64,000 bases of DNA, from the IMG/VR virus record IMGVR_UViG_3300014208_000038. One strand, given 5' to 3'. The position numbers were made by a program, and so were the translations under genes. Shown piece by piece: positions 9,831-53,782 of the stretch. Source of the DNA: a virus. Its lineage: Duplodnaviria; Heunggongvirae; Uroviricota; Caudoviricetes. Positions within the stretch are counted from its first letter, which is position 1, and each line of letters opens with the position of its first letter. Below the pieces are notes generated by a model. The model did no database searches. It was given only the letters and a program-made list of their open reading frames with translations, and was not told where the DNA came from.

Positions 9831-9877
9831 TTTTTAAGAAAACTTAAATATTTTTTAAATATAAAAATAGAGGAGGA

Positions 9878-20408: not shown

Positions 20409-20831
20409 TTGGTAAATCCAATGAAATACAAGCTCGATAGGTCTGCACATTCAGTGTACTCACTTCACTATCACTTGGTGGTAGTCATCAAGTACCGTAG
20501 GAAAGCACTCTATGATGAAGCGATTCGCGAGAGGCTAAAGCAGATCATTTGGAGTTTGATGGATGAACTTGGAATAGAAATACTAGCACAGGAACCCGCC
20601 GAAGATCATCTCCATATACTGTTCACAGCGACACCTACAACCAACTTATCCAACGTCGTGAATGTAATCAAGGGCGTCACTGCCAGAAGACTCCGACAAG
20701 AGTTTCCGCAAACCAAGGAGTTCCTTTGGGGGGACTCATTTTGGTCAAATTCCTACTTCATTTCCAGTACAGGGCAGGTATCTCTCGATGTTCTGATGCA
20801 GTATGTAGAGTCTCAGATGGAGAAAGTATGA
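20409..20831 (+). CDS. tnpA: IS200-type Y1 (HuH) transposase TnpA
   Basis: HuH motif HYHLVVV and downstream catalytic Tyr region; about 140 aa. Confidence 0.9.
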   Translation: MVNPMKYKLDRSAHSVYSLHYHLVVVIKYRRKALYDEAIRERLKQIIWSLMDELGIEILAQEPAEDHLHILFTATPTTNLSNVVNVIKGVTARRLRQEFPQTKEFLWGDSFWSNSYFISSTGQVSLDVLMQYVESQMEKV

Positions 20832-22015
20832 TTATAAGCTACAAGTATCCTATCTTCCCGAATAAGATCGCCCAATGGAAGTTAGCGGAGAATTTGGATG
20901 CTTGTAGATGGCTCTATAATCGGCTTCTCCAAGACCTGAATGAAGCAAAAGAAAAAGGTATCAAGCTCAAGACCTATGATTCTCAGAACATGATTCCTTC
21001 TCTGAAGCTCGTAAATCCAAAGCTGGATCTTGTCTACTCTAAAGTTCTTCAGATGGTGAATTACACTCTTTGGTCTAACATCAAAGGACTCTCGGCATCA
21101 AAGAAGAACGGTCGGAAGATCGGTCATATCCGCTTCAAAGGGTATGGTTGGTATAATACCCTGAATTACAACCAATCCGGGTTCAAGATCGATCGAGATC
21201 ATGGCCTATTGCATCTCTCCAAGATCGGAGAAATGCGGATCAAGATCTATCGAAAGATCGAAGGTTGCATCAAAGCCGTCATAATCAAGAGAGAAGGCGA
21301 GAGATGGTTCGCCATAGTCCAGGCCAATCAGGAACCACAGCCGTTACCAAGAACCGAGGAAGCGGTAGGTCTGGATGTCGGTTTGACTTCCTTCGTGGTT
21401 GACTCCGAAGGCAATAATATAGAAAATCCAAGATGTGCCGAGCAATCTGCTGATAAACTGGCAAAGCTACAAAGAAAGCTAGCCAGAGCCAAGATGGGAT
21501 CAAATAATCGCAAAGCAATCAAGGATAAGATCGCCAAGCTGCATAAAAGAATCAATTGCCAACGAGATGATTTCCTGCATAAGTTATCTCGGACCTATAT
21601 TAATAACTTTGATATCATTTGTGTTGAAGATCTTGATGTCAAAGGCCTGAAAGAGAAAGGCCATAACACTGGCATGCATCGCAGCATTCATGATGCATCC
21701 TGGTCTAAGTTCATATTCATGCTTTCGTACAAGGCTCAAAGTGCTGGTCGAAAGTTGATAAAAGTAGATCCCAGGAACACCACTCAAAGGTGTTCTGCTT
21801 GTGGAAGCATCGTAAAGAAAGATCTGTCGGTACGAGTACATGAGTGCCCTTATTGCGGATTCTCGTGTGATCGAGACTATAATGCTTCCAGGAATATACT
21901 CATCACAGGGATGGAACAGCCCGTAGCGCCCAAAGAACCAAAACCACTACATCACATATCAGTGATGCAAGTTTTGGCAATGACGTGGGAAGCCGTGCCC
22001 TTCAGGACGCGGTAG
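20828..22015 (+). CDS. tnpB: TnpB (OrfB) RNA-guided-nuclease-family protein
   Basis: RuvC-like motifs (GLDVGL, ICVEDLDVKGL), C-terminal zinc finger CSACG...CPYCG...RDYNAS.NI; ATG 20828 overlaps tnpA stop; the track start 20726 is an over-extension. Confidence 0.9.
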   Translation: MIISYKYPIFPNKIAQWKLAENLDACRWLYNRLLQDLNEAKEKGIKLKTYDSQNMIPSLKLVNPKLDLVYSKVLQMVNYTLWSNIKGLSASKKNGRKIGHIRFKGYGWYNTLNYNQSGFKIDRDHGLLHLSKIGEMRIKIYRKIEGCIKAVIIKREGERWFAIVQANQEPQPLPRTEEAVGLDVGLTSFVVDSEGNNIENPRCAEQSADKLAKLQRKLARAKMGSNNRKAIKDKIAKLHKRINCQRDDFLHKLSRTYINNFDIICVEDLDVKGLKEKGHNTGMHRSIHDASWSKFIFMLSYKAQSAGRKLIKVDPRNTTQRCSACGSIVKKDLSVRVHECPYCGFSCDRDYNASRNILITGMEQPVAPKEPKPLHHISVMQVLAMTWEAVPFRTR

Positions 22016-22822: not shown

Positions 22823-23293
22823 ATGAAAAAGTTTCTTATTAAAGATTCAAAACTTTTGTCTCAAATTAAAAATATTATTAATATAAAATGGAAAGCAAAT
22901 AAGAAATATGTTCTTGCGGATTTAGTAATCTCTGCTCCAAATATTTATACTCCAGATTTAAGAACAGAATATGCATTTACGCCAGATGGAGATTTAATTG
23001 GAGATCCTAAAGCAGCTCAAATCTTGATTACTCAAAAAGGAATTAAACCTGAATTAAGAAGGCCCATAGATCAGATTTGTAGTATTGGATGGAGTTCTAA
23101 GACTCAAATGTACTATGGTTGGACATCTGGTAAAATAAGAGGTTTTAAAGTCAATGGAAAACCATTGGAATCTGGAGACATATTAACTGATATTTTAGAG
23201 GCAGGTTACGTCCCTCAATCAAAAGAAGATTGCAAACAGATGGCTATTTTGTTTGTGGAATTAGCTTCAAAAGAAGGTAAAATGCATGGTTAA
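22823..23293 (+). CDS. hypothetical protein
   Basis: SD aggagggaaataaaATG. Confidence 0.4.
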   Translation: MKKFLIKDSKLLSQIKNIINIKWKANKKYVLADLVISAPNIYTPDLRTEYAFTPDGDLIGDPKAAQILITQKGIKPELRRPIDQICSIGWSSKTQMYYGWTSGKIRGFKVNGKPLESGDILTDILEAGYVPQSKEDCKQMAILFVELASKEGKMHG

Positions 23294-24803: not shown

Positions 24804-25649
24804 ATGAAGATTTTACATATAGGAGATATATGTGGAGTACCACAATTAATTTCTGAAGAACAAAGACGAAGGGGATTAGACTCTCAATCTATTTCCTATC
24901 CTCCAGATTATAGTTTAGTAGGGAGACTAAAAAAATTTAATGATTTATTTAAAATTATAAAGAATTTTAATATAATTCATTTTCATTATTCTACAGGGCT
25001 TCCATATGGGTTAGATTTGCCTATTTGGAAATTATTAAATAAAAAAATTATAATGCATTATCATGGCAGGATAAGAAGGTTAGGACTTCCTATACTGCAT
25101 AGATTTTTTGTAGATAAATTTTATGTATCCACTCCTGACCTTTTAAAATATGCACCAAAGGATGCGATTTATATCCCAAATCCTATAAAATTAGAAAAAG
25201 TTCATAAAAAATCAAGAAGCAATCCATTAAAATTTATTCATTTACCCACTAATAGAAAAGTAAAGGGTACAAAATATATAATAAAAGCTTTTGAAGAATT
25301 AAAAATGATGGGATATGAATTTGAATTTAAAATTATTGAAGGAAAAAGTCATTCGGAAGCTATTTCTGCTATAAAAGAGGCAGATGTTGTTATTGATCAA
25401 TTACATTGTGGATGGTATGGACTCGTTTCAATAGAAGCCTGGATGCTCAATAAGCCTGTGATTTGTTATATTAGACCAGATCTTTATTTTAAATATGATG
25501 TTCCAGTTAATCCGGCTGGTACAACTACAATTAAGGATGCTATAAAAGAATTTATTACTTGGCCAGAGATATGCGAATTATGGGGAAACAGGGGAAGGAA
25601 ATATGTAGAACGAAATCATGACATAGAAAAAATGCAGTTAGAGGACTAA
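24804..25649 (+). CDS. GT-B-fold glycosyltransferase (group 1/GT4-like)
   Basis: C-terminal ...EAISAIKEADVVIDQ...GLVSIEAWMLNKPVI resembles the GT4 E-x7-E region. Confidence 0.5.
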   Translation: MKILHIGDICGVPQLISEEQRRRGLDSQSISYPPDYSLVGRLKKFNDLFKIIKNFNIIHFHYSTGLPYGLDLPIWKLLNKKIIMHYHGRIRRLGLPILHRFFVDKFYVSTPDLLKYAPKDAIYIPNPIKLEKVHKKSRSNPLKFIHLPTNRKVKGTKYIIKAFEELKMMGYEFEFKIIEGKSHSEAISAIKEADVVIDQLHCGWYGLVSIEAWMLNKPVICYIRPDLYFKYDVPVNPAGTTTIKDAIKEFITWPEICELWGNRGRKYVERNHDIEKMQLED

Positions 25650-30130: not shown

Positions 30131-30913
30131 TTATTCTCCTATAAAAGAATCCATATTTTTTATTATTTCTTTTGGATTGTTATATAAGTTCTTCCATCTT
30201 ATTCTTATAAGTTCCCATCCCAAACTAATTAATAATTTATCTTTCTTTTTATCACTTTCTATTTGTTTTTTAGTAAGATGTTGATCTCCATCAATTTCTA
30301 TTGCTTTCATTTTTTCTTTCCAAGCAAAATCTATAGAATAACGACCAACAGAATATTCTCTAATATAGTTTTTATCTTTAAAATTATTTTTTATTGCCTT
30401 TATTACAAATTGTTCTGGATAAGAAGGTTCATTATTCCAACGACAAGATCCTATATTATGAGCCCTGCCTTCTGCATGAGCTTTTTTCATAGATTTTGAA
30501 ATTTTTATTTTTTGTTTACCACTTATAATAGGATGTGGATTTTTTAAATAATATTCTTTTTTTATTTTACTAAGGCTTAGGCATAAATTTTTTGTTTTTT
30601 CTTCTCCATAAAGTTCGTTATATGTTTTATCTTTATTGAAATTTGGTTTTCCTAATTTTATATATTTTATTTTTTTAGAATGTTCTTGACCAGAATAAAT
30701 ATGTACGCGCCATATATGAGTAGAAATTCCTTTTAAAGTAAATTCTTTTGAACAAATAGGGCAAAGATAAAATCCATTTTCTTGTATGCAATTTTTATTT
30801 ATTTCAAAATTTTTTATTTTTTTAATATTAGAATGAGATAAAATATGTTTTTTAATATTAGAATTACTTATTAATCTTTTACACTCTGGGCATTCTGTTT
30901 TATTTCTAATCAT
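30131..30913 (-). CDS. 2x C2H2 zinc finger + DUF559 (Vsr-like endonuclease fold) protein; putative site-specific/homing-type endonuclease
   Basis: CPECK...H...H and CPICS...H...H fingers; C-terminal YSVGRYSIDFAW...IEIDGDQH...LGWELIRIRW is the DUF559 signature. Confidence 0.6.
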   Translation of the reverse strand: MIRNKTECPECKRLISNSNIKKHILSHSNIKKIKNFEINKNCIQENGFYLCPICSKEFTLKGISTHIWRVHIYSGQEHSKKIKYIKLGKPNFNKDKTYNELYGEEKTKNLCLSLSKIKKEYYLKNPHPIISGKQKIKISKSMKKAHAEGRAHNIGSCRWNNEPSYPEQFVIKAIKNNFKDKNYIREYSVGRYSIDFAWKEKMKAIEIDGDQHLTKKQIESDKKKDKLLISLGWELIRIRWKNLYNNPKEIIKNMDSFIGE

Positions 30914-30932: not shown

Positions 30933-31004
30933 TCTGTACTCCCGAAGTTGAATCGGGTTAATCTCGGTCTACAGCCGAGTGCATAACCGTTCTGCCAAGT
31001 ACAG
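30933..31004 (-). tRNA. tRNA-Tyr (anticodon GUA), 72 nt, C1:G72 pair
   Basis: manual fold: acceptor CTGTACT/AGTACAG, anticodon arm CTCGG-CTGTAGA-CCGAG, T-arm CCCGA-TTCAACT-TCGGG; C1:G72 is the archaeal/eukaryal Tyr identity pair; no encoded CCA. Confidence 0.7.
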
Positions 31005-31151
31005 TTTTTTGCCACCACAGATATTTCGATATACTAACAGCGTACTCGTCTTTTCTAGACTTATGGGTGTTGACTCCTTTTCCTGAAGCCGCAAGGGTAC
31101 TGATTTATATCGAGGTACTACTACCCTTTATTCCCTTCTATGGTGACAAAA

Positions 31152-31257
31152 TGGACAGTGAGGAACTCGAATCCCCGGCCTCCTGCTATTTTGTTTGACC
31201 TTTCCCCATTATGTCAAAAATGCAAAGCAGGCTATCTTCCAACTGATATAACTGCCC
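31152..31257 (-). tRNA. tRNA-Ala (anticodon UGC) with a 33-nt intron at position 37/38
   Basis: acceptor GGGCAGT/ACTGTCC with G3:U70; D-arm TATC-AGTTGGAA-GATA; anticodon stem CCTGC/GCAGG, loop TT-TGC-A | intron TTTTTGAC...GTCAAACAAAAT | A; T-arm GGGGA-TTCGAGT-TCCTC; followed by TTTT. Confidence 0.75.
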
Positions 31258-31295
31258 AAGAGCAGTGATTATGTGCCCAATATCCCTATCACCAA

Positions 31296-31369
31296 TGGGC
31301 TTGTTCGGATTTGAACCGAAGGCCAAGTGGTTCCAGACCACCTATGCTACCAGGCTACACTACAAACCC
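31296..31369 (-). tRNA. tRNA-Pro-like (anticodon UGG), unusual C33
   Basis: acceptor GGGTTTG/CAAGCCC, D-loop TAGCCTGGTAGC (archaeal/eukaryal style), anticodon arm GGTGG-TCTGGAA-CCACT, T-arm TTCGG-TTCAAAT-CCGAA; TTTATAG TATA-like box about 28 nt upstream. Confidence 0.6.
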
Positions 31370-31458
31370 ATATCTTAGTATATGGTTCTTCTATAAATAG
31401 TTTTCTCTTATGATTTCGGAGCGTTAACTATTTATCTTAGGCAACATAAGAATATATT
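31370..31458. promoter_or_regulatory. divergent promoter region: TATA-like boxes for the minus-strand tRNA cluster and the + strand ligase gene
   Basis: minus-strand AAAACTATTTATAGAAG about 28 nt upstream of tRNA-Pro 5' end; + strand ACTATTTATCTTAGG about 30 nt before ATG 31459 (no SD, leaderless-like). Confidence 0.45.
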
Positions 31459-32109
31459 ATGAAATACCCTCATACTCCATATTTTAGTTTTAGTCCAGCA
31501 GTAAGCGAGAAAGATAGAAACAGAAAGGATGTATATATTAATTTACAACATCTTCTTAATAAGCCTTTAGTATTTACTATTAAGATGGATGGTAGTAATT
31601 TAGGAATGACTAGAGAAAAAATATTTGCTAGGAATGGAATTGATGCCAGGCACAAATCGTTTGACTTAGCAAAGAGCCTTCATAACAGAATTAAGAAAGA
31701 AATTCCAGAAAATGAAATTTGGTATGGAGAGTGGTTGTATGCTAAACATTCTATTCATTATTCTGATCTAGAATCGTACTACCAATTATTTGCTATATAT
31801 TTTGTTGAAGAAGATTATTGGACTGGAGTTAATTGGATAAAGAATAGGGCAGAACTTCATGGACTGAAAACCGTGCCTTTGCTTACTAGAGGACCACAAT
31901 ACGGGGATGTTAAAACTTTGAAGCAGGTAATTCAACAGGAGGGAGACAGAGTAATTAAAATGGGTCAAGAAGGTATTGTGGTTAGAACCAAAGATGGGTT
32001 TTACGCAAAAGACTTAAATAAGTGTATAGCGAAATATGTTCGTGCAAATCATATTCAAACCGATGAGCATTGGAAAACACAGAAAATTGTGAAAAATTTA
32101 TTGAGGTGA
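31459..32109 (+). CDS. compact ATP-dependent polynucleotide ligase (KxDG nucleotidyltransferase), RNA/DNA ligase-like
   Basis: motif I TIKMDGSNLG (Lys-x-Asp-Gly), motif IV-like EWLYAKHS, motif V-like GIVVRTKDG...AKYVR; 216 aa. Confidence 0.6.
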   Translation: MKYPHTPYFSFSPAVSEKDRNRKDVYINLQHLLNKPLVFTIKMDGSNLGMTREKIFARNGIDARHKSFDLAKSLHNRIKKEIPENEIWYGEWLYAKHSIHYSDLESYYQLFAIYFVEEDYWTGVNWIKNRAELHGLKTVPLLTRGPQYGDVKTLKQVIQQEGDRVIKMGQEGIVVRTKDGFYAKDLNKCIAKYVRANHIQTDEHWKTQKIVKNLLR

Positions 32110-33473: not shown

Positions 33474-35786
33474 TTGACTCAAAAAGAACTATCGATTGAA
33501 GAATTAAAATTTTTAAAAGAGAACAAAATAGACTTTGAAGGAGATTTAATTACAGAATACGTAGAAAGAGGTTATAATCTTTGCCCTGTAAGTAAAGGAA
33601 CTAAAGATCAATACCTATACAAATGGTCGTTGCTTCAAGAAAAAAAAGCAACTCTTCAACAAATTAATGGGTGGAGAGGAAAATATAACTCAGATTGGGT
33701 TCTTGTATGTGGAAAACAGAATGAGAACATTATTGTAATTGATTTTGATGATCCAGAAATTTATGAAAGGTATTTTTCTGAGTATAAGAAAATGTTATCT
33801 AGATCTCCTTCTGGAGGTTATCATCTCTATATTAAGGCCAAAAAACTTCCGGGTGCTATAAATGGATTTGGAGGATTTTTAATTGATATCAAAGGGGAAG
33901 GTTCCGTTTGCCACATTCCTCCATCAGAAGGTAATGATTGGATTTTCTTGGAGTCAGAACCTGATGAAATTGATATAAATATAGAAGATTGGATTCTATC
34001 TTTGCTCCCTTCTGGCAAAATAGAATCAAAATATAAGACAGGGGAAATTCCAGCAGATATTTTTAGTTATGCTAGAGAGAAACTTAAGGTAACTTTTGAG
34101 GATAAAAAAGGTAGATATCTTAAATGTACCTGTCCTTTTCATAGAGGCGGAAAAGAAACAGATGGTTCTTTAACTATATTTGCTCATGACCAAAAGTTTT
34201 GGTGTTTTTCCTGTCATAAAAAGGGAGGAATGTTTGAGCTAATAAAAGAATTTGAGTCAGGAATTACTGAAAATGAAATTTTAGAGCGATATGGTCTAAT
34301 CAAAGAACCTGGAACTATTGTTCAAAAAGTAATTAAGTTAGCTAGAGATAGTTGTAAATTTGTTAAAGATCAGAATAATACTACATATGCAGTTATTATA
34401 AAAAATCAATGTGATATGGATCAGAACATCTATGTTATTGATAGCCTTGGCTTCAGATGGTGGTTAGCTCATAATTATGAAGCTGTATATGAAGGGGCCT
34501 TACCTTCGGATAATCAAGCAAGTCAGGCAATGAAACATTTAGCTGGATTTGCTATTACAAAAGGAGAGAGAATTAGAAGTTTTAATAGAATTGGTGTCGG
34601 AAATAATTCTAAAGAAATATTTTATGATATCGGAGATGGTTCCTATCTTAAAATAGAACCTGATGATATAAATATTGTTAAATCAACAGATCTATTCTTT
34701 AGAAGAGAGAGTCATCAAGGGATACAGGTTTTGCCTCATAAATTTAACCCAATGGATACAATTAAATTATTTGATATTATAAATGTAAAAGAACAGAAGA
34801 GTAAACTGCTTTTAATTGCCTGGCTAGTGACTTCTCTGCTTCCCGATGAAGAACATCCTGTTTTATTACTTCATGGTTCGCAGGGTGCCGGTAAGTCTGT
34901 TGCTGCTAGGATCACAAAAAGGTTAATTGACCCAACCAGTTCAGAAAAGAATGAATTATCTAGGTTAAATGCTAAAGATTATGGGCAAATTACATTTACA
35001 TTAGCTCATAATTTTGTTACTATATTCGATAATATATCTTTTACTGATAAATCAATAGATGATATTCTTTGTTTGGGTGTAACTGGTGGATCAGAAATTA
35101 AAAGAGCCTTATTTACGAACTCAGAAACTGTGTCTACAGATATTAGCAGTACTATTATTCTAACAACTATCAACCCGGATTTGATCACAGCAGGAGATCT
35201 TGGAGATAGATCTATACAGATCGAATTAGATAGACCTGTAGGAAAGTTTTTAAACAGGAAATTTATTGATGCTCACTTTAATTCTGTCAAATCTGAGATT
35301 TTTGGTGGGCTGATTGCCTTGGTACAGCTTTATCTAGAGAAAAAAGAAGAGTTAGAAAAAGAACCATCTAGCTTTAGGATGACTACATATGCCGCTGTTG
35401 GAAAACTTGTAGCCGAAACACTTGGATTAGGAAGTTTTGAAGAGGCTTATCTAGCAGATCAGCTATATATTACTAGATCTGTGCTCGAAAATGAGCCTTT
35501 GTCTCAATTTGTTTATTATATGGCAGATCAACATCCTGATACTCCGTATTCTTTTACGGATCTTTTAGCTGAAATGCAAGATTGGGGCACTAAAACTGGA
35601 ATTAATACTACAATTGGCAAGGAATTTCCAACTGGTGCAAAAGGTATGTCTCAAAAACTAAAAAGATTAGAAGAAGATCTAAGGAGAAGTTGGAAGATTA
35701 AAACTACCAGATGTGATGTAAATAAGAGTAGAGGAATTATGTTTAGTAAACCGGGATCATCCGATATAAGAAGAGAGGAGGAATAA
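33474..35786 (+). CDS. primase-polymerase (prim-pol) / CHC2 zinc-finger / P-loop NTPase (D5-like helicase) fusion protein
   Basis: N-terminal prim-pol (IVIDFDD...SPSGGYHLYI), CHC2 finger CTCPFHRGGKETDGS...CFSCHKKG, Walker A HGSQGAGKSV; apparent TTG start. Confidence 0.75.
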   Translation: MTQKELSIEELKFLKENKIDFEGDLITEYVERGYNLCPVSKGTKDQYLYKWSLLQEKKATLQQINGWRGKYNSDWVLVCGKQNENIIVIDFDDPEIYERYFSEYKKMLSRSPSGGYHLYIKAKKLPGAINGFGGFLIDIKGEGSVCHIPPSEGNDWIFLESEPDEIDINIEDWILSLLPSGKIESKYKTGEIPADIFSYAREKLKVTFEDKKGRYLKCTCPFHRGGKETDGSLTIFAHDQKFWCFSCHKKGGMFELIKEFESGITENEILERYGLIKEPGTIVQKVIKLARDSCKFVKDQNNTTYAVIIKNQCDMDQNIYVIDSLGFRWWLAHNYEAVYEGALPSDNQASQAMKHLAGFAITKGERIRSFNRIGVGNNSKEIFYDIGDGSYLKIEPDDINIVKSTDLFFRRESHQGIQVLPHKFNPMDTIKLFDIINVKEQKSKLLLIAWLVTSLLPDEEHPVLLLHGSQGAGKSVAARITKRLIDPTSSEKNELSRLNAKDYGQITFTLAHNFVTIFDNISFTDKSIDDILCLGVTGGSEIKRALFTNSETVSTDISSTIILTTINPDLITAGDLGDRSIQIELDRPVGKFLNRKFIDAHFNSVKSEIFGGLIALVQLYLEKKEELEKEPSSFRMTTYAAVGKLVAETLGLGSFEEAYLADQLYITRSVLENEPLSQFVYYMADQHPDTPYSFTDLLAEMQDWGTKTGINTTIGKEFPTGAKGMSQKLKRLEEDLRRSWKIKTTRCDVNKSRGIMFSKPGSSDIRREEE

Positions 35787-35788
35787 AT

Positions 35789-36526
35789 ATTTTTAAATTA
35801 TCACCCATTAATTTAATTGAAGAAGAGAATTTCCATAATGCGTGGGTCAAGGCGATTAAGTTTTGTGATCGTTATGGAACTCCAATAGTTTTTGGAGATA
35901 AAAAAGATCCCAAAAAAGCAAAAGATAGTTGTCAAACTATATCTTTAACCGGAAATGCAATTACTCAAATAGAGAACAAAGAAATTCACCCCAAGTTTCC
36001 ATTTAAACAGATTAACCAATATTGTAGTGAATTTACTAGAGAATATTTAGAAGAATATTTAAAAAAGCCTGATAATCAAAAATTTGCTTATTTATATTTT
36101 GATAGATTAGTTAATTATGATTGTGGAACAGAAAATGGAATTATAGATCAATTATCTGTATTAAAATATCAATTACAAAAACAGATAGAAGATAATATAA
36201 TTAATAATAGATGTCAGGCTATTACTTGGTATCCTGATGTAGATTTGAGATCTAATAGCCCGCCGTGTTTATTGTCTATTCAAGTAAGATATGTAGGAGA
36301 ACAAAAAGTAGATGTTCATTGGCATTTTCGCAGTCGAGATTTGATTTCTGCATGGCAAGCTAATGTAATTGCCTTAACAGAATGCATAAACAGAGAAGTC
36401 GTTTGGCCAAATAATTGTAGACTTGCTAGAATTATAGATTATAGCGATAGCTTGCATCTCTATAATAATATGCAAAATGTGGTAAATGAAGTTGAGTTAG
36501 TTCCTGATATTTCATTCTACCATTAA
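35789..36526 (+). CDS. divergent thymidylate-synthase (ThyA)-family pyrimidine C5-modifying enzyme; lacks an ATG start
   Basis: frame open from 35789 with no in-frame ATG before 36245; ThyA-like motifs RCQAITWYP (RxxxxSAWNP), SPPCLLSIQ (LPPCH with His to Leu), FRSRD (QRSxD), ANVIAL (FNIASY), SLHLYNN (DAHxYxNH). Confidence 0.6.
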   Translation: MFKLSPINLIEEENFHNAWVKAIKFCDRYGTPIVFGDKKDPKKAKDSCQTISLTGNAITQIENKEIHPKFPFKQINQYCSEFTREYLEEYLKKPDNQKFAYLYFDRLVNYDCGTENGIIDQLSVLKYQLQKQIEDNIINNRCQAITWYPDVDLRSNSPPCLLSIQVRYVGEQKVDVHWHFRSRDLISAWQANVIALTECINREVVWPNNCRLARIIDYSDSLHLYNNMQNVVNEVELVPDISFYH

Positions 36527-36775: not shown

Positions 36776-37300
36776 ATGAACTCTAACGTTTTATCCAGTG
36801 AGGAAATTAAAGAGAGAAACCTTGTAATAGGAGCAAAGGAGGAACAGTATCAAACTAATGGGGTGGATCTTACTGTTGGTGGAATTTATAAAGTTTTAGA
36901 CCTACCCTTTGGCACAAAACCAAAAGATTCTGACTATGAAAAAATTCCCATGATTCTAGAGGATGAAGATGTAGATCCTTATTGGATTGTTCCAGTAGGT
37001 ATGCCAGTTCTTATTGAAATTGGGGAAACGGTTAATTTAAATAAAGATAATGACTATTCTTTGTTTGGTTATGCAGTAGGAAGATCCTCTATGCACCGCA
37101 TTGGTGTTATGGTGTATGGAAGTTACTGGGATAATGGTTATGTGGGAAAAGGGAAGCTATTAGTGGTTCCAATGGCACAGGATCTTCTTATTAAAAAAGG
37201 GGATAGGTTTGCACAAATAGCATTTTGGCCTGCTAATCAATCAAATAAGAATTATAATGGAACTTATCAAAAAGAAGGTTTAAAAAATGAATACAAATGA
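36776..37300 (+). CDS. dCTP deaminase/dUTPase-family protein
   Basis: GYAVGRSSMHRIGV (R-S-S...G motif of the dUTPase fold) and flanking beta-rich pattern. Confidence 0.65.
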   Translation: MNSNVLSSEEIKERNLVIGAKEEQYQTNGVDLTVGGIYKVLDLPFGTKPKDSDYEKIPMILEDEDVDPYWIVPVGMPVLIEIGETVNLNKDNDYSLFGYAVGRSSMHRIGVMVYGSYWDNGYVGKGKLLVVPMAQDLLIKKGDRFAQIAFWPANQSNKNYNGTYQKEGLKNEYK

Positions 37301-38370: not shown

Positions 38371-38575
38371 TTATGTTCTCAATGTGGCATGATAGTTCTT
38401 AAAGATCTTTCAGTTAAGGTTCATAAATGCCCTTACTGTAAGCTAGAACTAGATCGAGATCATAATGCCGCGCTTAATATACTAAGATTGGGATTACAAT
38501 CTTTGGGTAGTATAATCTATTCTTTGAATGGGTAAATCCCTAGAAGCTCCGCCCTTCAGGACGGGGAGTAGTCAC
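38371..38575 (+). pseudogene. relic of an IS200/IS605 element: TnpB C-terminal fragment plus right-end sequence
   Basis: translation MCSQCGMIVLKDLSVKVHKCPYCKLELDRDHNAALNIL parallels the intact TnpB C-terminus ([37 protein letters not shown]); followed by ...CCGCCCTTCAGGACGGGGAGTAGTCAC matching the IS right end ...GTGCCCTTCAGGACGCGGTAGTTCAC; AT-ameliorated. Confidence 0.8.
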
Positions 38576-38591: not shown

Positions 38592-38957
38592 ATGGAATTT
38601 AAATATAAAATGGCAATAGTTATAAGAAAAGATTTAGAAATGTCTCCTGGAAAACTTGCAGGACAATGTGCTCATGCTGCCTGTGGATGTTTGAGGGCAC
38701 CCATAGGACCAGAAAAATCAAAATATATAGAGGAATGGTTTGAAGAAGGTCAAGTGAAAGTAATTTTGCAAGTAGAAAAACAAGCAGATTTACATATGTT
38801 AGCTTCTAAATGTTTATTAGAAGAAGTACCTTATTATTGTGTTAGAGACTTTGGACTTACAGAATTGGAACCTAATACGCTTACTTGTGTAGGAATTGGT
38901 CCAGATCTCAAAAAGAATGTAGATAAAATTACGGGAAATCTTAAACTATATAGGTGA
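38592..38957 (+). CDS. pth2: peptidyl-tRNA hydrolase, PTH2 (archaeal/eukaryotic type)
   Basis: MAIVIRKDLEMSPGKLAGQCAHAA matches the PTH2 signature (V.R.DL.M..GK.AAQ.AHA); about 120 aa; SD ggaggaatttaagatATG. Confidence 0.8.
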   Translation: MEFKYKMAIVIRKDLEMSPGKLAGQCAHAACGCLRAPIGPEKSKYIEEWFEEGQVKVILQVEKQADLHMLASKCLLEEVPYYCVRDFGLTELEPNTLTCVGIGPDLKKNVDKITGNLKLYR

Positions 38958-39667: not shown

Positions 39668-39862
39668 ATGGATGAGAAACAAAAAGTTTTTGTCTACGGT
39701 CTTAGGACTGTAATAAGACAAAAAATCAAGAAAACTGGGGATACAGTTAATAAAGGACAGTTAAGAACAATAGATACAGTTATTGATGGACTTAATATTA
39801 TAGAAGATATGAGTTTAGAAGAGGTTCAAAAATTAATGAAGAAAATGGAAGGTGAGATTTGA
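39668..39862 (+). CDS. hypothetical protein
   Basis: SD aaggaggataagtaaaATG. Confidence 0.4.
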   Translation: MDEKQKVFVYGLRTVIRQKIKKTGDTVNKGQLRTIDTVIDGLNIIEDMSLEEVQKLMKKMEGEI

Positions 39863-40896
39863 TGGAGCAAAATCAAAAATCTAGGCATCTAGCCTCTGTT
39901 CAACAAATTGTAGATATTCAACCTATTGAAAATGCTGATTCTATTGAACTAGCTCGTGTATTAGGTTGGAATGTAGTAATTAAAAAAGGACAATTTAAAG
40001 TGGGAGATCCTATAGTATATTTTGAAATTGATAGTGTCCTCCCCAAAATTCCTGATTTTGAGTTTCTTAAAGATAAGCATTACAAAGTAAAAACTTGTCG
40101 TCTACGTGGAGCTATTTCCCAGGGGCTATGTACTCCATTAAGTATTCTGCCCGAAGGACATTATGATCTTGGAGATGATGTAACAGAGATTCTTGGAGTA
40201 ACTAAATACGAGAAGCCTATTCCTGTTCAGTTGAGAGGGAGAGTTCGAGGTAATTTTCCAAGAGGGATACCTAAAACAGAAGAGCTGCGGGTTCAATCTA
40301 TTCCACATATAGTAAGTAAATATCAAGGATATACGTTTACTCTAACTGAAAAATTAAATGGTACTTCTGCTACGTATTTTTTGGATGAAGAGACTGGATT
40401 ACATTGTTGCAGCAGAAATTTAGATTTACATCCAGAGACGGTACACAAATTCAATGGAACTGCGTATTGGTTTTTGGCTGAGAAACTAAATATTGAAGAA
40501 ATTATTAAAACATTAGGTAAAAATATCGTGATCCAAGGAGAAATCATTGGCAATGGAATTAATGGAAATCAATATAAATTGAATGATCTTCAACTAAAGA
40601 TATTTAATTTATATGATAAAGAAAACCATGTATATCTGGATCAACAAGTAATGAATGATATCATAGAAGGTCTTGGATTTTCTAAAGATTTTTTTGTCCC
40701 GTATCTTGGACAGATTACGTTGGATCAGAATGTAGATCAAATTGTGGAAATGGCTTATGGAAGATCTGTAATTAATCCAGATGTAATTCGGGAAGGCTTA
40801 GTTTTCCGAGCCAGTCCAGAGATTATAGATCCATTTGTGGGCAGAGTAAGCTGGAAATGTATCTCTCCGAGCTTTAACCTAGAGTTCAAAGAATAA
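39859..40896 (+). CDS. RNA ligase-like nucleotidyltransferase (Rnl2-like family) with N-terminal extension
   Basis: motif I-like TEKLNGTSATYF (K-x-N-G in place of K-x-D/H-G), downstream EGxV and K-rich motif V-like regions; 345 aa. Confidence 0.5.
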   Translation: MMEQNQKSRHLASVQQIVDIQPIENADSIELARVLGWNVVIKKGQFKVGDPIVYFEIDSVLPKIPDFEFLKDKHYKVKTCRLRGAISQGLCTPLSILPEGHYDLGDDVTEILGVTKYEKPIPVQLRGRVRGNFPRGIPKTEELRVQSIPHIVSKYQGYTFTLTEKLNGTSATYFLDEETGLHCCSRNLDLHPETVHKFNGTAYWFLAEKLNIEEIIKTLGKNIVIQGEIIGNGINGNQYKLNDLQLKIFNLYDKENHVYLDQQVMNDIIEGLGFSKDFFVPYLGQITLDQNVDQIVEMAYGRSVINPDVIREGLVFRASPEIIDPFVGRVSWKCISPSFNLEFKE

Positions 40897-42865: not shown

Positions 42866-43360
42866 ATGATTTTTAAGTGTGGTGGTATTTCTGATTCTAC
42901 TATAGATGGGATTGGTATGTCTTTAGATATATTCTTTCAAGGATGTTCTAAAGGATGTAAGGGATGCCAAAATCCAGAATTGCAAGATAAGTTTAAAGGA
43001 GATTTTATAGATATTGACTTTATCATGGAACAACTAGAAAAATATTCTGGATTTTATCAATCCCTAGTTTTTGTAGGAGGGGAACCACTTGAACAAATAG
43101 ATCCATTATTGTATTTAATTTGTCTTGCCAAAGAATTTAAATTATATACAGTTTTATATACAGGTAATATATATAAAAATATTCATCCTGATATAAGAAG
43201 AACTTGTGATATTATTGTTGATGGGGATTATAGAGAAGATTTAAAAACTGGTGGGTTTCCGGCTTCGAGTAATCAAAATATTTATATTTATGGTAAAAAA
43301 ATTGAATTAAATAATAACTATAACAAAAGTTTAATGGAGATATTTAATAATGAGAATTGA
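42866..43360 (+). CDS. nrdG: anaerobic ribonucleotide reductase activating protein (radical SAM, NrdG-like)
   Basis: FFQGCSKGCKGCQNP Cys cluster of NrdG-type activases; small size; immediately upstream of and overlapping nrdD. Confidence 0.75.
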   Translation: MIFKCGGISDSTIDGIGMSLDIFFQGCSKGCKGCQNPELQDKFKGDFIDIDFIMEQLEKYSGFYQSLVFVGGEPLEQIDPLLYLICLAKEFKLYTVLYTGNIYKNIHPDIRRTCDIIVDGDYREDLKTGGFPASSNQNIYIYGKKIELNNNYNKSLMEIFNNEN

Positions 43361-45230
43361 AACAACTTTTTCAAACGAGTTTGATGAATGGTATAATAAG
43401 ATTATGAAAGCAAATTTGGGACCAGAATTTTTAGATATAGAAGGAATTTCTAGGCGTTGTATTGATGTAGGATTAATGTCTCATTCCTATTTTACTAAAA
43501 ATTTTACGGACGAAACAATAGATAGTAATGCTAATACGGGAGAATCAATCTCACCAAATAATTATGGTAGTGAAATTGTAAAAGGAGTTCAAAAACTTGA
43601 GGGTTTTTATTTACTTCATAGATATGCTTCAAGAAGATATGGATTGGAAAAGGCAAATAGATTATTAAATGCAATTGTGCGCGGCGACCTCTATTTTCAC
43701 GATTCTAGCGGTCCTGGGATTCAAGAGGTATATTGTACTTCAGTTAGTACTTATCCTATAATGACAGAGGGCAGAAAATATGGCCCCCTCCATAGTCTTC
43801 CTCCCAAGAGAGCTGATTCTTTTATTGCTCAATGTATTGAGTTCACAATGGATCTATCGCAGCAATTCGCAGGTGCAGTAGCTCTTGGAGATTTATTTAT
43901 TAACTACGCTTATTACAGTAGAAAGGAAAATTTATCTGATAAAATTATATTAAATGATTTCCAAAAGTTCGTACATGTAGTCAATAATACATTCAGGGTG
44001 TCCGAACAGAGCCCATTTTCCAACCTTAGTATCTTTGATATACCTAATTTAGAAAAAGTTTTTGGAGACTATAAATATCCAGATGGTTCTTCTCCAGATT
44101 TTGAATATATTATGAATATTCAAAAGTTATTCTGTGAATGGTTTTCTCACGGAGATCCAAAAAGCGGCTTCCCATATCGTTTTCCCATCATCACAATGAA
44201 TCTTCTTTGTGACAAAGATAAGAATATTTTAGATACTGATTTTCTAGACTTTATCTCAAAAGTTAATTTGGAAAAAGCTTGCTTTAATATTTATATAAAT
44301 TCTGGGGAAAAGATTGCATCCTGTTGTAGAATGATAAATGACAAAAAAAGAATGCAATTTAAAGTGGATACTTTTGGAAATGGTGGAATGAATGTAGGTA
44401 GTGTAAGAGTTGTTACAATAAACCCTGTAAGAATTGCTATTAAATCGAATGGCGACCAAACAATTTTCTTCCAAAAATTACAACAACAATTAGAAAATGC
44501 AAGAGATCTTCTTATAGTACATAGAGAGGACATTATAAAAAGGCGTATTGATGCCGGATTTTTAAAATTCTTTAAGCCTTTAAATTGGTTGAATTTGAAA
44601 AGATATTTTAGCACGTTTGGAATAGTTGGAATTTATGAGATGAATAAAACAATGGGTTATGATATAACTTCAGAAGATGGAATCAAATTTACCGCAGAAG
44701 TCTTAAAATATATTGAAGATTTTGCCATAAAGTCAAGTAATGAACTTGGATTTTCCTTCAATGTTGAGGAAATACCAGCAGAATCTGCGGCTAGTAAACT
44801 TGCTCAAAAAGATAGGCTTCTGTTTGGTAAAAACAAAATTCCTTTTGAATCATACTCAAATCAGTATGTTCCTCTTATTGAACAGGCGTCAATTCCCGAA
44901 CGTATAATTACTACTGGTAAATTTATGGAGATACTTTCTGGTGGGGGTATTTTACACCTAAATATTGCAGAACAAATTAAAGATCCAGAAGTTATGAAGC
45001 ACTTAATTGAATATAGTGTAAAACACGGAGTTAGTCACCTAGCAGTAAACTACGGATTTGGGCAGTGTAAAAATAGGCATACAACTATTTGTGGAAATAA
45101 TCCAAAGTGTTCTATATGTGGGTCTAAAATTGATACTTATGTGACAAGAATCGTAGGCTACCAGGCCCGCGTGTCAAATTTTTCTAAAGTAAGAAGAGAA
45201 TATGAGTTTCCTCGGAGGGTATTCAATTAA
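43350..45230 (+). CDS. nrdD: class III anaerobic ribonucleoside-triphosphate reductase (NrdD)
   Basis: N-terminal ATP-cone-like region, C-terminal Zn ribbon CKNRHTTICG...CSICGS and glycyl-radical motif TRIVGYQARV. Confidence 0.85.
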   Translation: MRIETTFSNEFDEWYNKIMKANLGPEFLDIEGISRRCIDVGLMSHSYFTKNFTDETIDSNANTGESISPNNYGSEIVKGVQKLEGFYLLHRYASRRYGLEKANRLLNAIVRGDLYFHDSSGPGIQEVYCTSVSTYPIMTEGRKYGPLHSLPPKRADSFIAQCIEFTMDLSQQFAGAVALGDLFINYAYYSRKENLSDKIILNDFQKFVHVVNNTFRVSEQSPFSNLSIFDIPNLEKVFGDYKYPDGSSPDFEYIMNIQKLFCEWFSHGDPKSGFPYRFPIITMNLLCDKDKNILDTDFLDFISKVNLEKACFNIYINSGEKIASCCRMINDKKRMQFKVDTFGNGGMNVGSVRVVTINPVRIAIKSNGDQTIFFQKLQQQLENARDLLIVHREDIIKRRIDAGFLKFFKPLNWLNLKRYFSTFGIVGIYEMNKTMGYDITSEDGIKFTAEVLKYIEDFAIKSSNELGFSFNVEEIPAESAASKLAQKDRLLFGKNKIPFESYSNQYVPLIEQASIPERIITTGKFMEILSGGGILHLNIAEQIKDPEVMKHLIEYSVKHGVSHLAVNYGFGQCKNRHTTICGNNPKCSICGSKIDTYVTRIVGYQARVSNFSKVRREYEFPRRVFN

Positions 45231-47429: not shown

Positions 47430-47551
47430 CTTGTAGATATTAGTATGCTAATGGAGTTGGTTTAATTTCGCACCATAATGAAGTTCCCCAGGAGATTGCT
47501 GATCTCGCAGAACGACTTTGTAATAAGAAGTCTGGATTTAAAAGATATCCA

Positions 47552-47824
47552 ATGGCTGCAATAATTTATAAAGGTAGAAAACCAATTATTATTTCTACAG
47601 GGGTAAATTATCATCTTCATTGTGGAACGAATATTAAAAGAAAAAATTATAGTATTCATGCAGAAAGGGATGCTATAATGGGTTGCAGTAAACAAGATTT
47701 ATATGGTGCTCACATTTACGTACATCGTAAGGGTTATAAGCTGGCTCGTCCATGTATTAAGTGTATGAACTTGATTATGAGTACAGGAATAAATCACATA
47801 CATTGGTCTAATGGAGGGATTTAA
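47552..47824 (+). CDS. dCMP/cytidine-deaminase-family zinc enzyme (possibly N-terminally longer, frame open from 47444)
   Basis: HAERDAI (H-A-E) ... PCIKC (P-C-x-x-C) zinc-binding signature; upstream in-frame region has no ATG. Confidence 0.55.
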   Translation: MAAIIYKGRKPIIISTGVNYHLHCGTNIKRKNYSIHAERDAIMGCSKQDLYGAHIYVHRKGYKLARPCIKCMNLIMSTGINHIHWSNGGI

Positions 47825-51175: not shown

Positions 51176-51442
51176 ATGTTTGATTTAGAAGCGGCAGAAA
51201 AAAATTGGAGATTTTTTGAAATAAATAGTCAAATTTTGCCAAGTAATAGTGCAGCTTATTCCCATACTTATGATTTATTTTATGATATCGGAGTTAGGGC
51301 CGGACTTAATGAAATAAGAAAACTTCGAGAATTATTGAAAGAAGAATTTTTTAATAGGGAATGGGAATCTGGAAAATACAGGGATAAAGAAACGGCTATG
51401 GAAGTTGCAGAATTAAAACTAAAATCAAGAGGAATAATATGA
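51176..51442 (+). CDS. hypothetical protein
   Basis: 88-aa ORF. Confidence 0.35.
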   Translation: MFDLEAAEKNWRFFEINSQILPSNSAAYSHTYDLFYDIGVRAGLNEIRKLRELLKEEFFNREWESGKYRDKETAMEVAELKLKSRGII

Positions 51443-51825
51443 AAACATCTTATTTTGCACGTTTTGATAAACTAGTTAGAAGAGGAGAAAATGGAATAGT
51501 AGCAGGGCAAGGAATTTCTATTGCCAGATCTATGCCAAGGAATACAACTTGCACTAAAGAATATATTGCATTAGCTCCATCTCAAAAATTGCTTAATGAT
51601 TATAAACAAGGAAAAGTTAGTTGGGGAGAATATATAAAAGAATATGAAATAATATTTGCTATAAGTAATCCGAAAGAATGGTATAATTATCTCTGTAATT
51701 TAACAGAGGATTATGGTGAACCAATTCTTCTTTGTTGGGAGAATACAAAGTTTAACCTTTGTCATAGAATTTTAGTAGCAAATTGGTTTGAAAAAGCATT
51801 AGGAATTATCATTAACGAGGTGTAA
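51439..51825 (+). CDS. DUF488-family protein
   Basis: ILLCWENTKFNLCHRILVANWF parallels the DUF488 signature (LLC.E.dP..CHR.LlAeWL). Confidence 0.5.
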   Translation: MKTSYFARFDKLVRRGENGIVAGQGISIARSMPRNTTCTKEYIALAPSQKLLNDYKQGKVSWGEYIKEYEIIFAISNPKEWYNYLCNLTEDYGEPILLCWENTKFNLCHRILVANWFEKALGIIINEV

Positions 51826-52427: not shown

Positions 52428-53009
52428 ATGAATTCTAAAAATGATAGAGCTAAAAAGTTAATGGGTTTAAGACCAATAGGAGAAGTATTAAACCCAAATT
52501 TTAGCTTTATTTGTCCTGTTTGTCAAAATGCTTTGCAATTATCCGAATATAATAATTTTTTATGGTGTAAATATTGTAATATAGATATGCCTATCTATTT
52601 AGGATGGAAAGTTCTTTTAATAGATGATGTAAAAGCAATTACAAAAGATTTTTTAAATTTAATAGAAAACATAAAAAAAAATCCTTCTATTGCTAATTAT
52701 ATGGAAAATATAAGGTCAAAAACTTCTCTTGCTTATTGTATAATAAGTATTTTAGAAAAAGAAGGAGAAATAGAATTTAGAAAATTTAGATTTCTTTTAT
52801 TTGAATTATATTCAAATTTAAAAACAAAAAATATAGATATTAAGCTGCCTCATTATTGGTATGTAGACGGACCTCATATATATCTTAGAGGATTACCAGC
52901 AGTATTTAAACTAAGAATTAAAAAGAGTTTGGAAGATCCGAAGATATATAAAGTTACAATTTTATTAGATAAAAATATAAGCCCAAAATGTATAGAGGAA
53001 AACTTTTAA
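52428..53009 (+). CDS. zinc-finger hypothetical protein
   Basis: CPVCQN...CKYCN. Confidence 0.4.
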   Translation: MNSKNDRAKKLMGLRPIGEVLNPNFSFICPVCQNALQLSEYNNFLWCKYCNIDMPIYLGWKVLLIDDVKAITKDFLNLIENIKKNPSIANYMENIRSKTSLAYCIISILEKEGEIEFRKFRFLLFELYSNLKTKNIDIKLPHYWYVDGPHIYLRGLPAVFKLRIKKSLEDPKIYKVTILLDKNISPKCIEENF

Positions 53010-53035
53010 ATACAATTAAGGAGAATAGTAAGATT

Positions 53036-53782
53036 ATGTCGCAAAATAGATATCCATCCTTGGGAGACAGGATGAAAGAATATGAGGCAATTTCTCAAAA
53101 TAAATTGACTAGAAGGATGCCGGTTATTATTAGATTAGATGGCAAAGGATTTCATAATTATACAAGAAAAATGAAAAAACCTTATGATTCAGATCTTCAG
53201 TTAAATATGTGGAGATCTACAATAAGATTGTGTCAAGAGGTCCAAAATACAGTACTTGCATATTGTCAAAGTGATGAGGTTAGTCTTCTTATTGTAGACT
53301 ATAACACATTGAACACTCAACCTTGGTTTGCTAATGAAGTACAAAAATTATGTTCTCTAGCGGCATCTAGTATGACTCAATATTTTAATGATCCCCAAAC
53401 TAGAGGTGAATTACCTTATGGAGCGCGGTTTGATGCTAGATGTTTTAATCTTCCAAGGGAAGAGGTTACAAACTATTTTATTTGGAGAGAATTAGATTGG
53501 ATAAGAAATAGTATTCAAATGTTAGCACAATATTATTTTAACCCAAAAGAGTTATATAAGAAAAATACTAACCAAATGAAAGAAATGATTTTAAAAGAAA
53601 CTGGAATAAATTGGGATACTAATTTACAACCCTTCCAACGTAGAGGAACTACTTGTATAAAGAAAAATGAGAAATGGATTGTTGATTGTAATCTTCCAAT
53701 GTTTAACGAGAATAGAAATTATATAGAAAATTTATTATATAATGATAAAAATATTTTAGATAGTCCCAAAACCTTTTTATAG
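53036..53782 (+). CDS. Thg1-like protein (tRNA-His guanylyltransferase / 3'-5' nucleotidyltransferase family)
   Basis: N-terminal ...PVIIRLDGKGFHNYT... and ...AYCQSDEVSLLI... match the Thg1/TLP palm motifs; SD aaggagaatagtaagattATG; the track start 52988 is an over-extension. Confidence 0.6.
   Translation: MSQNRYPSLGDRMKEYEAISQNKLTRRMPVIIRLDGKGFHNYTRKMKKPYDSDLQLNMWRSTIRLCQEVQNTVLAYCQSDEVSLLIVDYNTLNTQPWFANEVQKLCSLAASSMTQYFNDPQTRGELPYGARFDARCFNLPREEVTNYFIWRELDWIRNSIQMLAQYYFNPKELYKKNTNQMKEMILKETGINWDTNLQPFQRRGTTCIKKNEKWIVDCNLPMFNENRNYIENLLYNDKNILDSPKTFL

Follow-up and report, generated by a model that had tools for sequence, protein, structure and literature searches.

We analysed a 64,000-nucleotide stretch of a tailed virus (IMG/VR record IMGVR_UViG_3300014208_000038, Caudoviricetes), called the window below, and in particular the gene at positions 35789..36526 of its plus strand, which consists of 245 codons plus a TAA stop (36524-26). 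We consider it likely that this gene encodes a functional archaeal-type thymidylate synthase (TS), of the kind found in methanogens and anaerobic methanotrophic archaea (ANME), that the AT-rich virus carrying it probably infects a methanogen-related archaeon, and that the enzyme is translated from an AUU codon and boosts the supply of dTTP. As far as sequence comparison goes, the gene belongs to a distinct virus-borne clade of ANME/methanogen-type TS and adds a viral member to an enzyme type that is already known. A first-pass annotation of the window, made from its letters alone, had mentioned a plain TS as the conservative reading, and this is the reading favoured by the family placement, the conserved residues, and the cellular relatives.

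The resemblance to ThyA is invisible to the simplest single-sequence tests. When the window protein alone was compared with the PDB by phmmer, no match was found, its sole match in Pfam was a sub-threshold one to DUF7659 (22.3 bits vs. 27), and BFVD held nothing close. With profiles and structures the resemblance is significant. The NCBIfam equivalog model of methanogen-type TS, TIGR03283, matches the protein over its full length (80.2 bits, E 1.4e-22), and TS families of PHROG match it too. A profile of 49 homologues matched solved ThyA chains in the PDB (hmmsearch, E 7e-8), and hhalign aligned the family to E. coli ThyA with a probability of 83%. The AlphaFold (AF2) model built on the same 49-homologue alignment has a predicted local distance difference test score (pLDDT) of 95, a predicted template modelling score (pTM) of 0.92 and the TS fold; structure comparison of the model revealed the characteristic alpha/beta fold of ThyA. 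The protein is a ThyA-superfamily enzyme, as the first-pass annotation had proposed from motifs.

The database search yielded 114 homologues. The eleven closest, with 59-76% identity, come from metagenomic contigs, and those contigs that are long enough to be judged (L001-L004) are virus-like and syntenic with the window, sharing the order PrimPol (primase-polymerase), TS, a small open reading frame (ORF), DCD/dUTPase (dCTP deaminase/dUTPase fold), PTH2 (peptidyl-tRNA hydrolase), RNA ligase, NrdG, NrdD. On another virus-like contig, a TS homologue is located between NrdD and a thymidylate-kinase-like gene. The next tier, with 50-54% identity over residues 2-239, is formed by genes in metagenome-assembled genomes of ANME-2c (Candidatus Methanogaster), ANME-1, and other Methanosarcinales. 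The context of the TS gene is chromosomal in L005 (carbon monoxide dehydrogenase/acetyl-CoA synthase (CODH/ACS), FrhB, pyruvate:ferredoxin oxidoreductase, acetyl-CoA synthetase), L010 (PurT, UbiE-type methyltransferase, asparagine synthase), and L013 (HemL, HemC, YcaO). A tblastn search of 50,697 deposited phage genomes with the TS produced a single match, ORF59 of Methanobacterium virus PhiF1, a putative methanogen-type TS. One further contig stands apart: L088 (Ga0172381_10019096), a 6.3-kb metagenome contig of the Joint Genome Institute (JGI) that begins within the TS gene, is in positions 1-324 99% identical to window residues 138-245 and, judged by this identity, is the same virus or a very close strain, assembled independently.

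In a neighbour-joining tree (support out of 100 bootstraps), the window protein groups with the virus-context sequences at 97/100, and the viral clade and the cellular ANME clade group together at 89/100, excluding PhiF1 and the sequences P0111-P0114. According to Chadwick et al. 2022 (PMC9012536), ThyA is present and ThyX absent in ANME-2c genomes; the ThyA cluster of ANME-1/2c/2d groups with Methanocellales and probably uses methylene-tetrahydromethanopterin (methylene-H4MPT; Chadwick et al., PMC9012536). The window protein resembles the ThyA of ANME-2c, ANME-1, and Methanosarcinales (the "Methanocellales-like" cluster, PMC9012536) in its length, in the SPPCL, RSRD, N, and SLH-Y motifs, in the full-length identity of 50-54%, in a sub-threshold TIGR03283 score, and in being its sister in the tree. 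It differs from them by belonging to a separate clade of virus contigs, by conservative substitutions such as W180F and M199C, by LLS vs. LQR in continuation of the Cys-Leu motif, and by its ATT start. Between the viral and the cellular clades, 17 positions are fixed differently; most of the replacements are conservative (I/F, L/I, W/F, M/C) and none is catalytic.

PhiF1 ORF59 (TIGR03283, MK994522) is a more distant relative. It shares with the window protein the compact TS fold that has neither the Trp80/Trp83 loop (E. coli numbering) nor the C-terminal lid, the Cys-Leu dyad, the R-S-x-D, N, and H-x-Y motifs, and the setting in an archaeal virus beside a DnaE-type polymerase with an N-terminal family-4 uracil-DNA glycosylase (UDG). 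On the other hand, the two are only 22% identical, and the window protein has N-R for RR, RSRD for RSHD, Ser for Glu at the position of L143, about 35 extra residues, and a TIGR03283 score of 80 bits where the cut-off is 174.55. As a side observation, a search seeded with the homologue P0112 returned 4,856 matches at E<=1e-5 from a clade dominated by Planctomycetes. This clade of PPCLQ-type (archaeal-like) TS of ~296 aa includes P0112 and P0115-P0233, and its named members are Planctomycetes (Sedimentisphaerales and others).

We mapped the positions of E. coli ThyA on the 116 aligned family members, with the E. coli numbering checked at 21 landmark residues. For the C-terminal half, HMMER and hhalign alignments to solved ThyA confirmed the mapping, and the placement of the N-terminal E58 and R21 by MAFFT is unreliable. 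The motifs of the family follow each other in the expected order: N140-R141-x4-T-W147-x-P, S157-P-P-C160-L161, R181-S-R-D184, N192, and H223-L-Y225-N-N, with SPPC at residues 157-160, RSRD at 181-184, and HLYNN at 223-227. The first-pass annotation had recognized this series, and one of its readings needed correction: the first motif is N140-R141-CQAI-T-W147-Y-P, i.e. RxxxxTWxP and not RxxxxxAWxP, with Asn replacing the first Arg of the canonical RR pair. Asn192 lies within QANVIAL.

The substrate-binding and catalytic residues are almost completely conserved. The nucleophile C146 corresponds to Cys160 (116/116; Cys160-Leu161 codons at 36266..36271), and R166, S167, and D169 correspond to R181, S182, and D184, which are invariant (116/116; R181-S182-R183-D184 codons at 36329..36340, R183 standing at C168). 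The counterpart of N177, the determinant of uracil vs. cytosine, is Asn192 (36362..36364; Asn in 115/116). In ThyA, H207 and Y209 contact the deoxyribose; their counterparts are H223 (His in 116/116) and Y225 (Tyr in 113/116), encoded at 36455..36463. Tyr is also found in 116/116 members at Y94, here Y103, and R127 has its equivalent as well. By hhalign, Y103 equals Y94, Y90 equals W83, and L87 equals W80. Glu81 is invariant and is a candidate equivalent of Glu58.

Identity to canonical bacterial and eukaryotic ThyA is 12-16%. The departures from E. coli ThyA (PF00303) are H147L, R126N, Q165F, C168R, and L143S, the replacement of the folate-contacting W80/W83 segment, to which L87 and Y90 align, and the loss of ~30 C-terminal residues that form the lid. 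In place of the canonical Cys-His dyad and the two tryptophans the protein has Leu161, L87, and Y90, and the same holds across the archaeal lineage, from which the C-terminal lid is missing throughout. The first-pass annotation had taken Cys-Leu for an altered dyad. As Leu occupies the position of H147 in 111/116 members, with SPPCLQR in all 29 cellular homologues and IPCLIL in the PhiF1 TS, Cys-Leu is the norm of the lineage and not a viral alteration; on this alignment it is the ancestral and near-universal state of archaeal-type TS. The annotation had itself named a place in a TS clade where Leu is common as the finding that would speak for an ordinary enzyme, and this is what the tree and the alignment give (ANME grouping at 89/100, Leu in 111/116). 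The divergence of the N-terminal folate/phosphate-binding region, which it had also noticed, is real and is a trait of the whole lineage. The lack of the W80/W83 segment and of the C-terminal lid fits a pterin cofactor other than folate. Once Cys-Leu and the divergent folate side are seen as lineage traits, a tempting false lead to hypermodified DNA is removed.

From the conserved residues, we infer TS activity, that is, conversion of dUMP to dTMP with a methylene-pterin. Cys160 would attack C6 of dUMP, Asn192 would read the uracil face, Arg181, Ser182, Arg141, and probably Lys45 would hold the phosphate, and His223 with Tyr225 would hold the deoxyribose. The methylene group would be transferred from the reduced pterin and then reduced, yielding dTMP. 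Because the protein lacks two elements of bacterial ThyA, the Trp80/Trp83 loop and the C-terminal lid, the pterin is probably host methylene-tetrahydromethanopterin or -sarcinapterin instead of folate. Together with the adjoining DCD/dUTPase-fold enzyme, dCMP deaminase, and NrdDG, the enzyme would raise the level of dTTP for a genome with 69% A+T. Compact viral TS enzymes could serve to test which C1 carrier archaeal TS uses (the lineage is uncharacterised, PMC9931769).

Several points weigh against this reading. Pfam PF00303 does not match the window protein even at E<=10 (gathering threshold 24.3 bits); close homologues pass it (P0019 with 35.8 bits, P0036 with 30.4, P0010 with 27.5). The TIGR03283 score is below the curated cut-off (80.2 vs. 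174.55 bits). Since the cellular ANME-type ThyA score in the same range (65-88 bits) and the PhiF1 TS passes with 187.1 bits, the window protein, judged by these scores, lies in a sister clade to the curated methanogen-type family and is not an equivalog member, being no outlier within its own clade. The position of L143 is occupied by Ser157 (codon 36257-36259) instead of the bulky hydrophobic residue that marks methyl products. No archaeal-type TS has been purified and assayed, and throughout the lineage the TS function is inferred (PMC9931769, PMC9012536). According to the literature, ThyX has taken the place of ThyA in ANME-1 except for a small subgroup (PMC9894754, PMC9012536), while some ANME-1 genomes (contigs L005, L012, L019, and L032) carry ThyA of this type, clearly chromosomal beside CODH/ACS in L005; in genomes described as having ThyX, its role could be redundant or a different one. 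AUU is a poor initiator, and archaeal aIF1 is known for its discrimination against non-canonical starts (PMC6237735), hence a low output of TS is expected. Finally, the window covers only part of the genome, and about half of its ORFs match no family.

The strongest competitor is a C5-modifying TS homologue, such as a dUMP hydroxymethylase, producing 5-hydroxymethyl-dUMP to replace thymidine, possibly as the first step of hypermodification; we regard this as improbable. Many phage TS homologues do act in this way (PMC8989533, PMC13326640), and position 147, here Leu, is among the two best separators of modified and unmodified viral contigs (PMC8670742). At the position of L143, acidic and bulky hydrophobic residues go with hydroxymethyl and methyl products, respectively, a non-bulky residue admitting water (PMC13326640, PMC8670742), and the residue here is Ser, not a bulky hydrophobic one. 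The dCMP deaminase and the dUTPase-fold enzyme would feed a hydroxymethylase as well, and the window contains a radical SAM/SPASM protein and a weak glycosyltransferase-like ORF (24804-25649). However, Leu147 and a non-hydrophobic residue at 143 are common to the chromosomal enzymes of ANME-2c and ANME-1 and to a bona fide methanogen-type TS, and therefore are lineage traits; moreover, no catalytic position differs between the viral and the cellular clades. At L143, the residue is S, A, T, or N in the ANME and viral clade, Glu in PhiF1, and Asp in P0112-P0114. With the trait shared by the whole lineage, housekeeping enzymes included, the L143 marker, as far as the alignment tells, is uninformative here, and the product markers derived from phages (positions 143 and 147) appear not to carry over to archaeal TS. 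The spread of S/A/T/N or D/E at this position in archaeal-type TS leaves two options, either that the marker is not transferable or that the chemistry of archaeal TS deserves a direct test.

Pfam and PHROG scans of ~70 window ORFs, many of which have no match and beyond which the genome extends, revealed no dNMP kinase, 5-hydroxymethyluracil (5-hmU) DNA kinase, aGPT-Pplase, TET/JBP, or dTTP/dTMP-depleting enzyme. The only candidate companion is the glycosyltransferase of the GT4/GT1-like type mentioned above, a sub-threshold match 10 kb away. The suggestion of the first-pass annotation that the virus synthesizes a non-canonical pyrimidine was not borne out, given the retained equivalents of N177 and D169, the lack of any catalytic difference between viral and cellular enzymes, and the lack of companion genes in the scanned ORFs. 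The hypermodification reading is unsupported, and nothing points to exotic DNA bases. A bolder version is conceivable: as every archaeal-type TS examined has a polar or acidic residue at L143 and none has been assayed in pure form, the viral enzyme might release 5-hydroxymethyl-dUMP and not dTMP, with the AUU start tuning the enzyme level. We see this as a long shot; if true, it would give the first archaeal virus with hydroxymethyluracil-based or hypermodified DNA.

Use of another substrate, either dCMP (by a methylase, hydroxymethylase, or hydroxylase) or a ribonucleotide, CMP or UMP, as in MilA, is very improbable. In phage TS homologues, N177 selects dUMP and N177D cytosine substrates (PMC13326640, PMC8670742), and D169N, with Asp at N177, marks the class of 5-hydroxy-dCMP synthases (PMC13326640). 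The equivalent of N177 is Asn here and in 115/116 members, not Asp, so the cytosine signature is missing; with Asp and not Asn as the equivalent of D169, the mark of the 5-hydroxy-dCMP synthases is missing too; and the equivalents of H207 and Y209 are conserved. With T4 gp42 dCMP hydroxymethylase, the SPO1-type dUMP hydroxymethylase, MilA, and the 5-hydroxy-dCMP synthase RB69 gp48/9iqc, the window protein has in common that it is encoded by a virus, and with the phage TS homologues that make modified pyrimidines it shares a residue other than His at 147 and a non-hydrophobic one at 143. Unlike the latter, it has neither N177D nor D169N (PMC13326640); among the scanned ORFs there is no companion gene for a kinase, transferase, or pool-depleting enzyme, and its nearest relatives are cellular housekeeping genes and not phage modification genes.

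The thymidylate synthase thus favoured has an unusual 5' end. Its frame is open on the plus strand at 35750-36526, following a TAA at 35747-49, which makes 258 codons; at the stop-triplet frequency of the window (0.072; stops are 7.2% of all triplets, G+C content is 31%), the chance of such a run is ~4e-9. The first-pass annotation had described a frame of 245 codons open from 35789; the frame is indeed open there, and its true extent is larger. It is the sole long plus-strand frame of the window with no canonical start near the 5' end. Codons 1-152 contain no ATG, GTG, or TTG, and the only canonical starts are TTG at codons 153, 162, 185, and 222, ATG at 228, and GTG at 231. An earlier statement that there is no ATG until codon 153 was correct as to the missing early ATG; as codon 153 is TTG and the first ATG is codon 228, the lack of a canonical start is even more marked than stated.

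The sequence features at this end suggest that translation most probably starts at AUU, at 35789..35791, a conserved rare start codon. The Shine-Dalgarno element AGAGGAGGA (35774..35782, plus strand), with the GGAGG core at 35777-35781, lies within the last codons of the upstream primase gene, and the core ends 7 nt before the ATT (6-9 nt depending on which 5-mer is counted). The primase stop TAA (35784..35786) is 2 nt ahead of the proposed start, in the geometry of stop-start coupling. No other start candidate in the TS frame is preceded by a Shine-Dalgarno element. In the window, a Shine-Dalgarno-like motif is found within 22 nt upstream of 42 of the 69 ORFs that start with ATG, with the spacing of 3-17 nt, most often 9-11; the spacing ahead of the ATT falls in this range. 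The Met1 codon of the homologues (MNNLSPINLIEE) aligns exactly to ATT 35789 (IFKLSPINLIEE), and in the structural model the first strand begins at residue 7.

The same GGAGGAATAA element and the same ATT are present in L001 (a 120-kb contig with a 62% identical protein), L002, and L047, which originate from three samples. An assembly error behind the ATT was ruled out by this independent recovery. In the other relatives examined, an ATG lies at most two codons from the aligned position, except for one 47%-identical locus with TTG. In the first 45 nt of the gene, the window and L001 are 91% identical, compared to roughly 40-90% in the other 45-nt bins, which suggests constraint on, or exchange of, the initiation region. 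The first-pass annotation had reasoned that translation must begin at a non-ATG codon or be coupled to the primase, and the Shine-Dalgarno element, the aligned Met1, and the conservation of the ATT agree with it. The GGAGG core would position the ribosome on the AUU, and as only 2 nt separate the start from the primase stop, initiation probably depends on translation of the primase gene by coupling and would be weak by design.

AUU-initiated genes are known, such as infC and pcnB of E. coli. The window gene resembles them in that its AUU is conserved and normally spaced from a Shine-Dalgarno element, which implies that initiation is weak on purpose or regulated. It differs in the setting of an archaeal virus, where aIF1 discriminates instead of IF3 (PMC6237735), in showing no evident autoregulatory logic, and in that the AUU start is deduced from sequence. 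A conserved AUU start in a gene of an archaeal virus is mis-handled by automatic callers: a homologue was extended to an upstream TTG by one caller, and a mechanical ORF listing shortened the window gene to 93 aa, from TTG 36245.

The latter listing, together with 152 codons devoid of ATG, GTG, and TTG, might be taken to mean that the gene is decaying, as the first-pass annotation had also considered, with the loss of ATG a recent inactivation, or that only the 93-aa product is made. Selection argues otherwise. The pairwise dN/dS (ratio of nonsynonymous to synonymous rates) with the homologues from L001 and L003 is 0.10-0.24 for the whole gene and 0.09-0.24 for codons 1-152 alone; the values are rough, as synonymous sites are saturated, and they still demonstrate purifying selection, at a level that neither a pseudogene nor an untranslated N-terminal half would show. 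The length of the open frame has a negligible probability by chance, every fold element and invariant residue is intact, the ATT is common to a relative with the protein identity of only 62% and was assembled from three independent samples, and the 45 nt following it are better conserved than most of the gene. Hence decay of the gene is highly unlikely. As for TTG 36245, it was rejected as the true start, with selection acting on codons 1-152 and the 93-aa fragment lacking more than half of the fold.

Scarcely credible is a primase-TS fusion made by programmed frameshifting at the 3' end of the primase gene, with no initiation codon of its own. In its favour, 13 open codons precede 35789 in the TS frame and overlap the primase 3' end, and the Shine-Dalgarno-like element beside a stop recalls the frameshift site of prfB. 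Against it, the TS gene is in the -1 (+2) frame of the primase, and 35750-35788 contains no slippery heptamer; a +1 shift as in prfB would lead into the other frame and terminate immediately. In addition, L001 has a different small ORF upstream of the same junction, and L003 and all other relatives have their own start at the aligned position and stand-alone products of ~245 aa.

The ORF that precedes the junction in L001 is an inserted zinc-ribbon ORF, whose stop is again the TAA of the GGAGGAATAA element. The insertion, of ~190 nt, lies between the primase and TS genes at 9840-10042 and is flanked by direct repeats of GGAGGAATAA. Its ORF encodes a CxxC...CxxC zinc ribbon in the primase frame, right after the primase TAA, has no canonical start, and contains an ATT 7 nt past a Shine-Dalgarno element; either an extension made by stop-codon readthrough or a further gene with an ATT start is conceivable.

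The neighbourhood of the TS gene is rich in genes of nucleotide metabolism and replication, all on the plus strand. Immediately upstream is a PrimPol with a CHC2 zinc-finger primase domain (33474..35786; Pfam PF09250, PF01807), syntenic in L001 and L003, whose 3' end holds the Shine-Dalgarno element of the TS. Downstream are a DCD/dUTPase-fold protein (36776..37300; Pfam PF22769, 64.5 bits), a probable supplier of dUMP that is syntenic in L001-L004 and matches the NCBIfam archaeal dUTPase model NF002598 with 73.9 bits, below the cut-off; the NrdG activase (42866-43360; Pfam PF13353/PF04055) and the anaerobic ribonucleotide reductase NrdD (43350-45230; Pfam PF13597), both syntenic in L001 and L003; and a small dCMP-deaminase-like protein (47465..47824) with HAE and PCxxC motifs (Pfam PF00383, 32 bits; dCMP deaminase families of PHROG), a possible further source of dUMP. 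The polymerase (57444-62750) is of the UDG (family-4)-PHP-PolIII-alpha (DnaE-type) architecture and is split by an intein with a LAGLIDADG endonuclease. The dUTPase-fold, dCMP-deaminase-like, NrdDG, UDG-polymerase, and primase genes listed by the first-pass annotation were all recovered by Pfam scans.

The dCMP-deaminase-like ORF has a 5' end of its own interest. The annotated start is ATG 47552, giving 90 aa; the open frame extends back to 47444, and the stretch between these positions lacks ATG, GTG, and TTG. Ahead of the Met at 47552, 12 residues align weakly to the conserved helix 1 of dCMP deaminase 2hvv (E 0.042), and an ATT at 47465 lies 8 nt past GGAG (47453-56). By these features, ATT may serve as the start in this gene of nucleotide metabolism as well.

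The host is probably a methanogen-related archaeon. Besides carrying the only TS match, PhiF1 is the only record among the 50,697 phage records that covers the UDG-PHP-PolIII-alpha part of the window polymerase. These links, together with the PTH2 of the archaeal/eukaryotic type, the match to the archaeal dUTPase model, and the heavy use of Shine-Dalgarno elements in the window, point to a virus of such an archaeon. ThyA encoded by viruses has already been noted in Methanoperedens viruses and Borgs (10.1101/2023.08.02.551345) and in some itzamnaviruses of ANME-1 (PMC9894754).

Other genes of the window are worth recording. A set for RNA repair and maturation (1476-2636, 31459-32109, 38592-38957, 39859-40896, and 52988-53782) comprises RtcB, two RNA ligases, a Thg1-like tRNA-His guanylyltransferase, and the PTH2 peptidyl-tRNA hydrolase. 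Genes for tRNA-Tyr and tRNA-Pro (30933-31370, minus strand) lie beside a C2H2 zinc-finger/DUF559 endonuclease-like gene (30131-30913). The window also encodes a ThiF-like E1 with a JAB deubiquitinase-like protein, a Tad6-like Thoeris inhibitor, and an "active" DUF488-N3a protein; the radical SAM/SPASM protein is located just upstream of the polymerase, and these genes with the glycosyltransferase-like one are at 9878-10441, 11543-12241, 22823-23293, 51439-51825, 56345-57430, and 24804-25649. Finally, a full TnpB (IS605 OrfB/Cas12f-like) gene and a separate 48-aa remnant of a TnpB C-terminus are found on the plus strand at 20567-22015 and 38389-38535, respectively; the frame of the full gene is open for 53 codons ahead of its first canonical start, and in L001 TnpB is at a different position.

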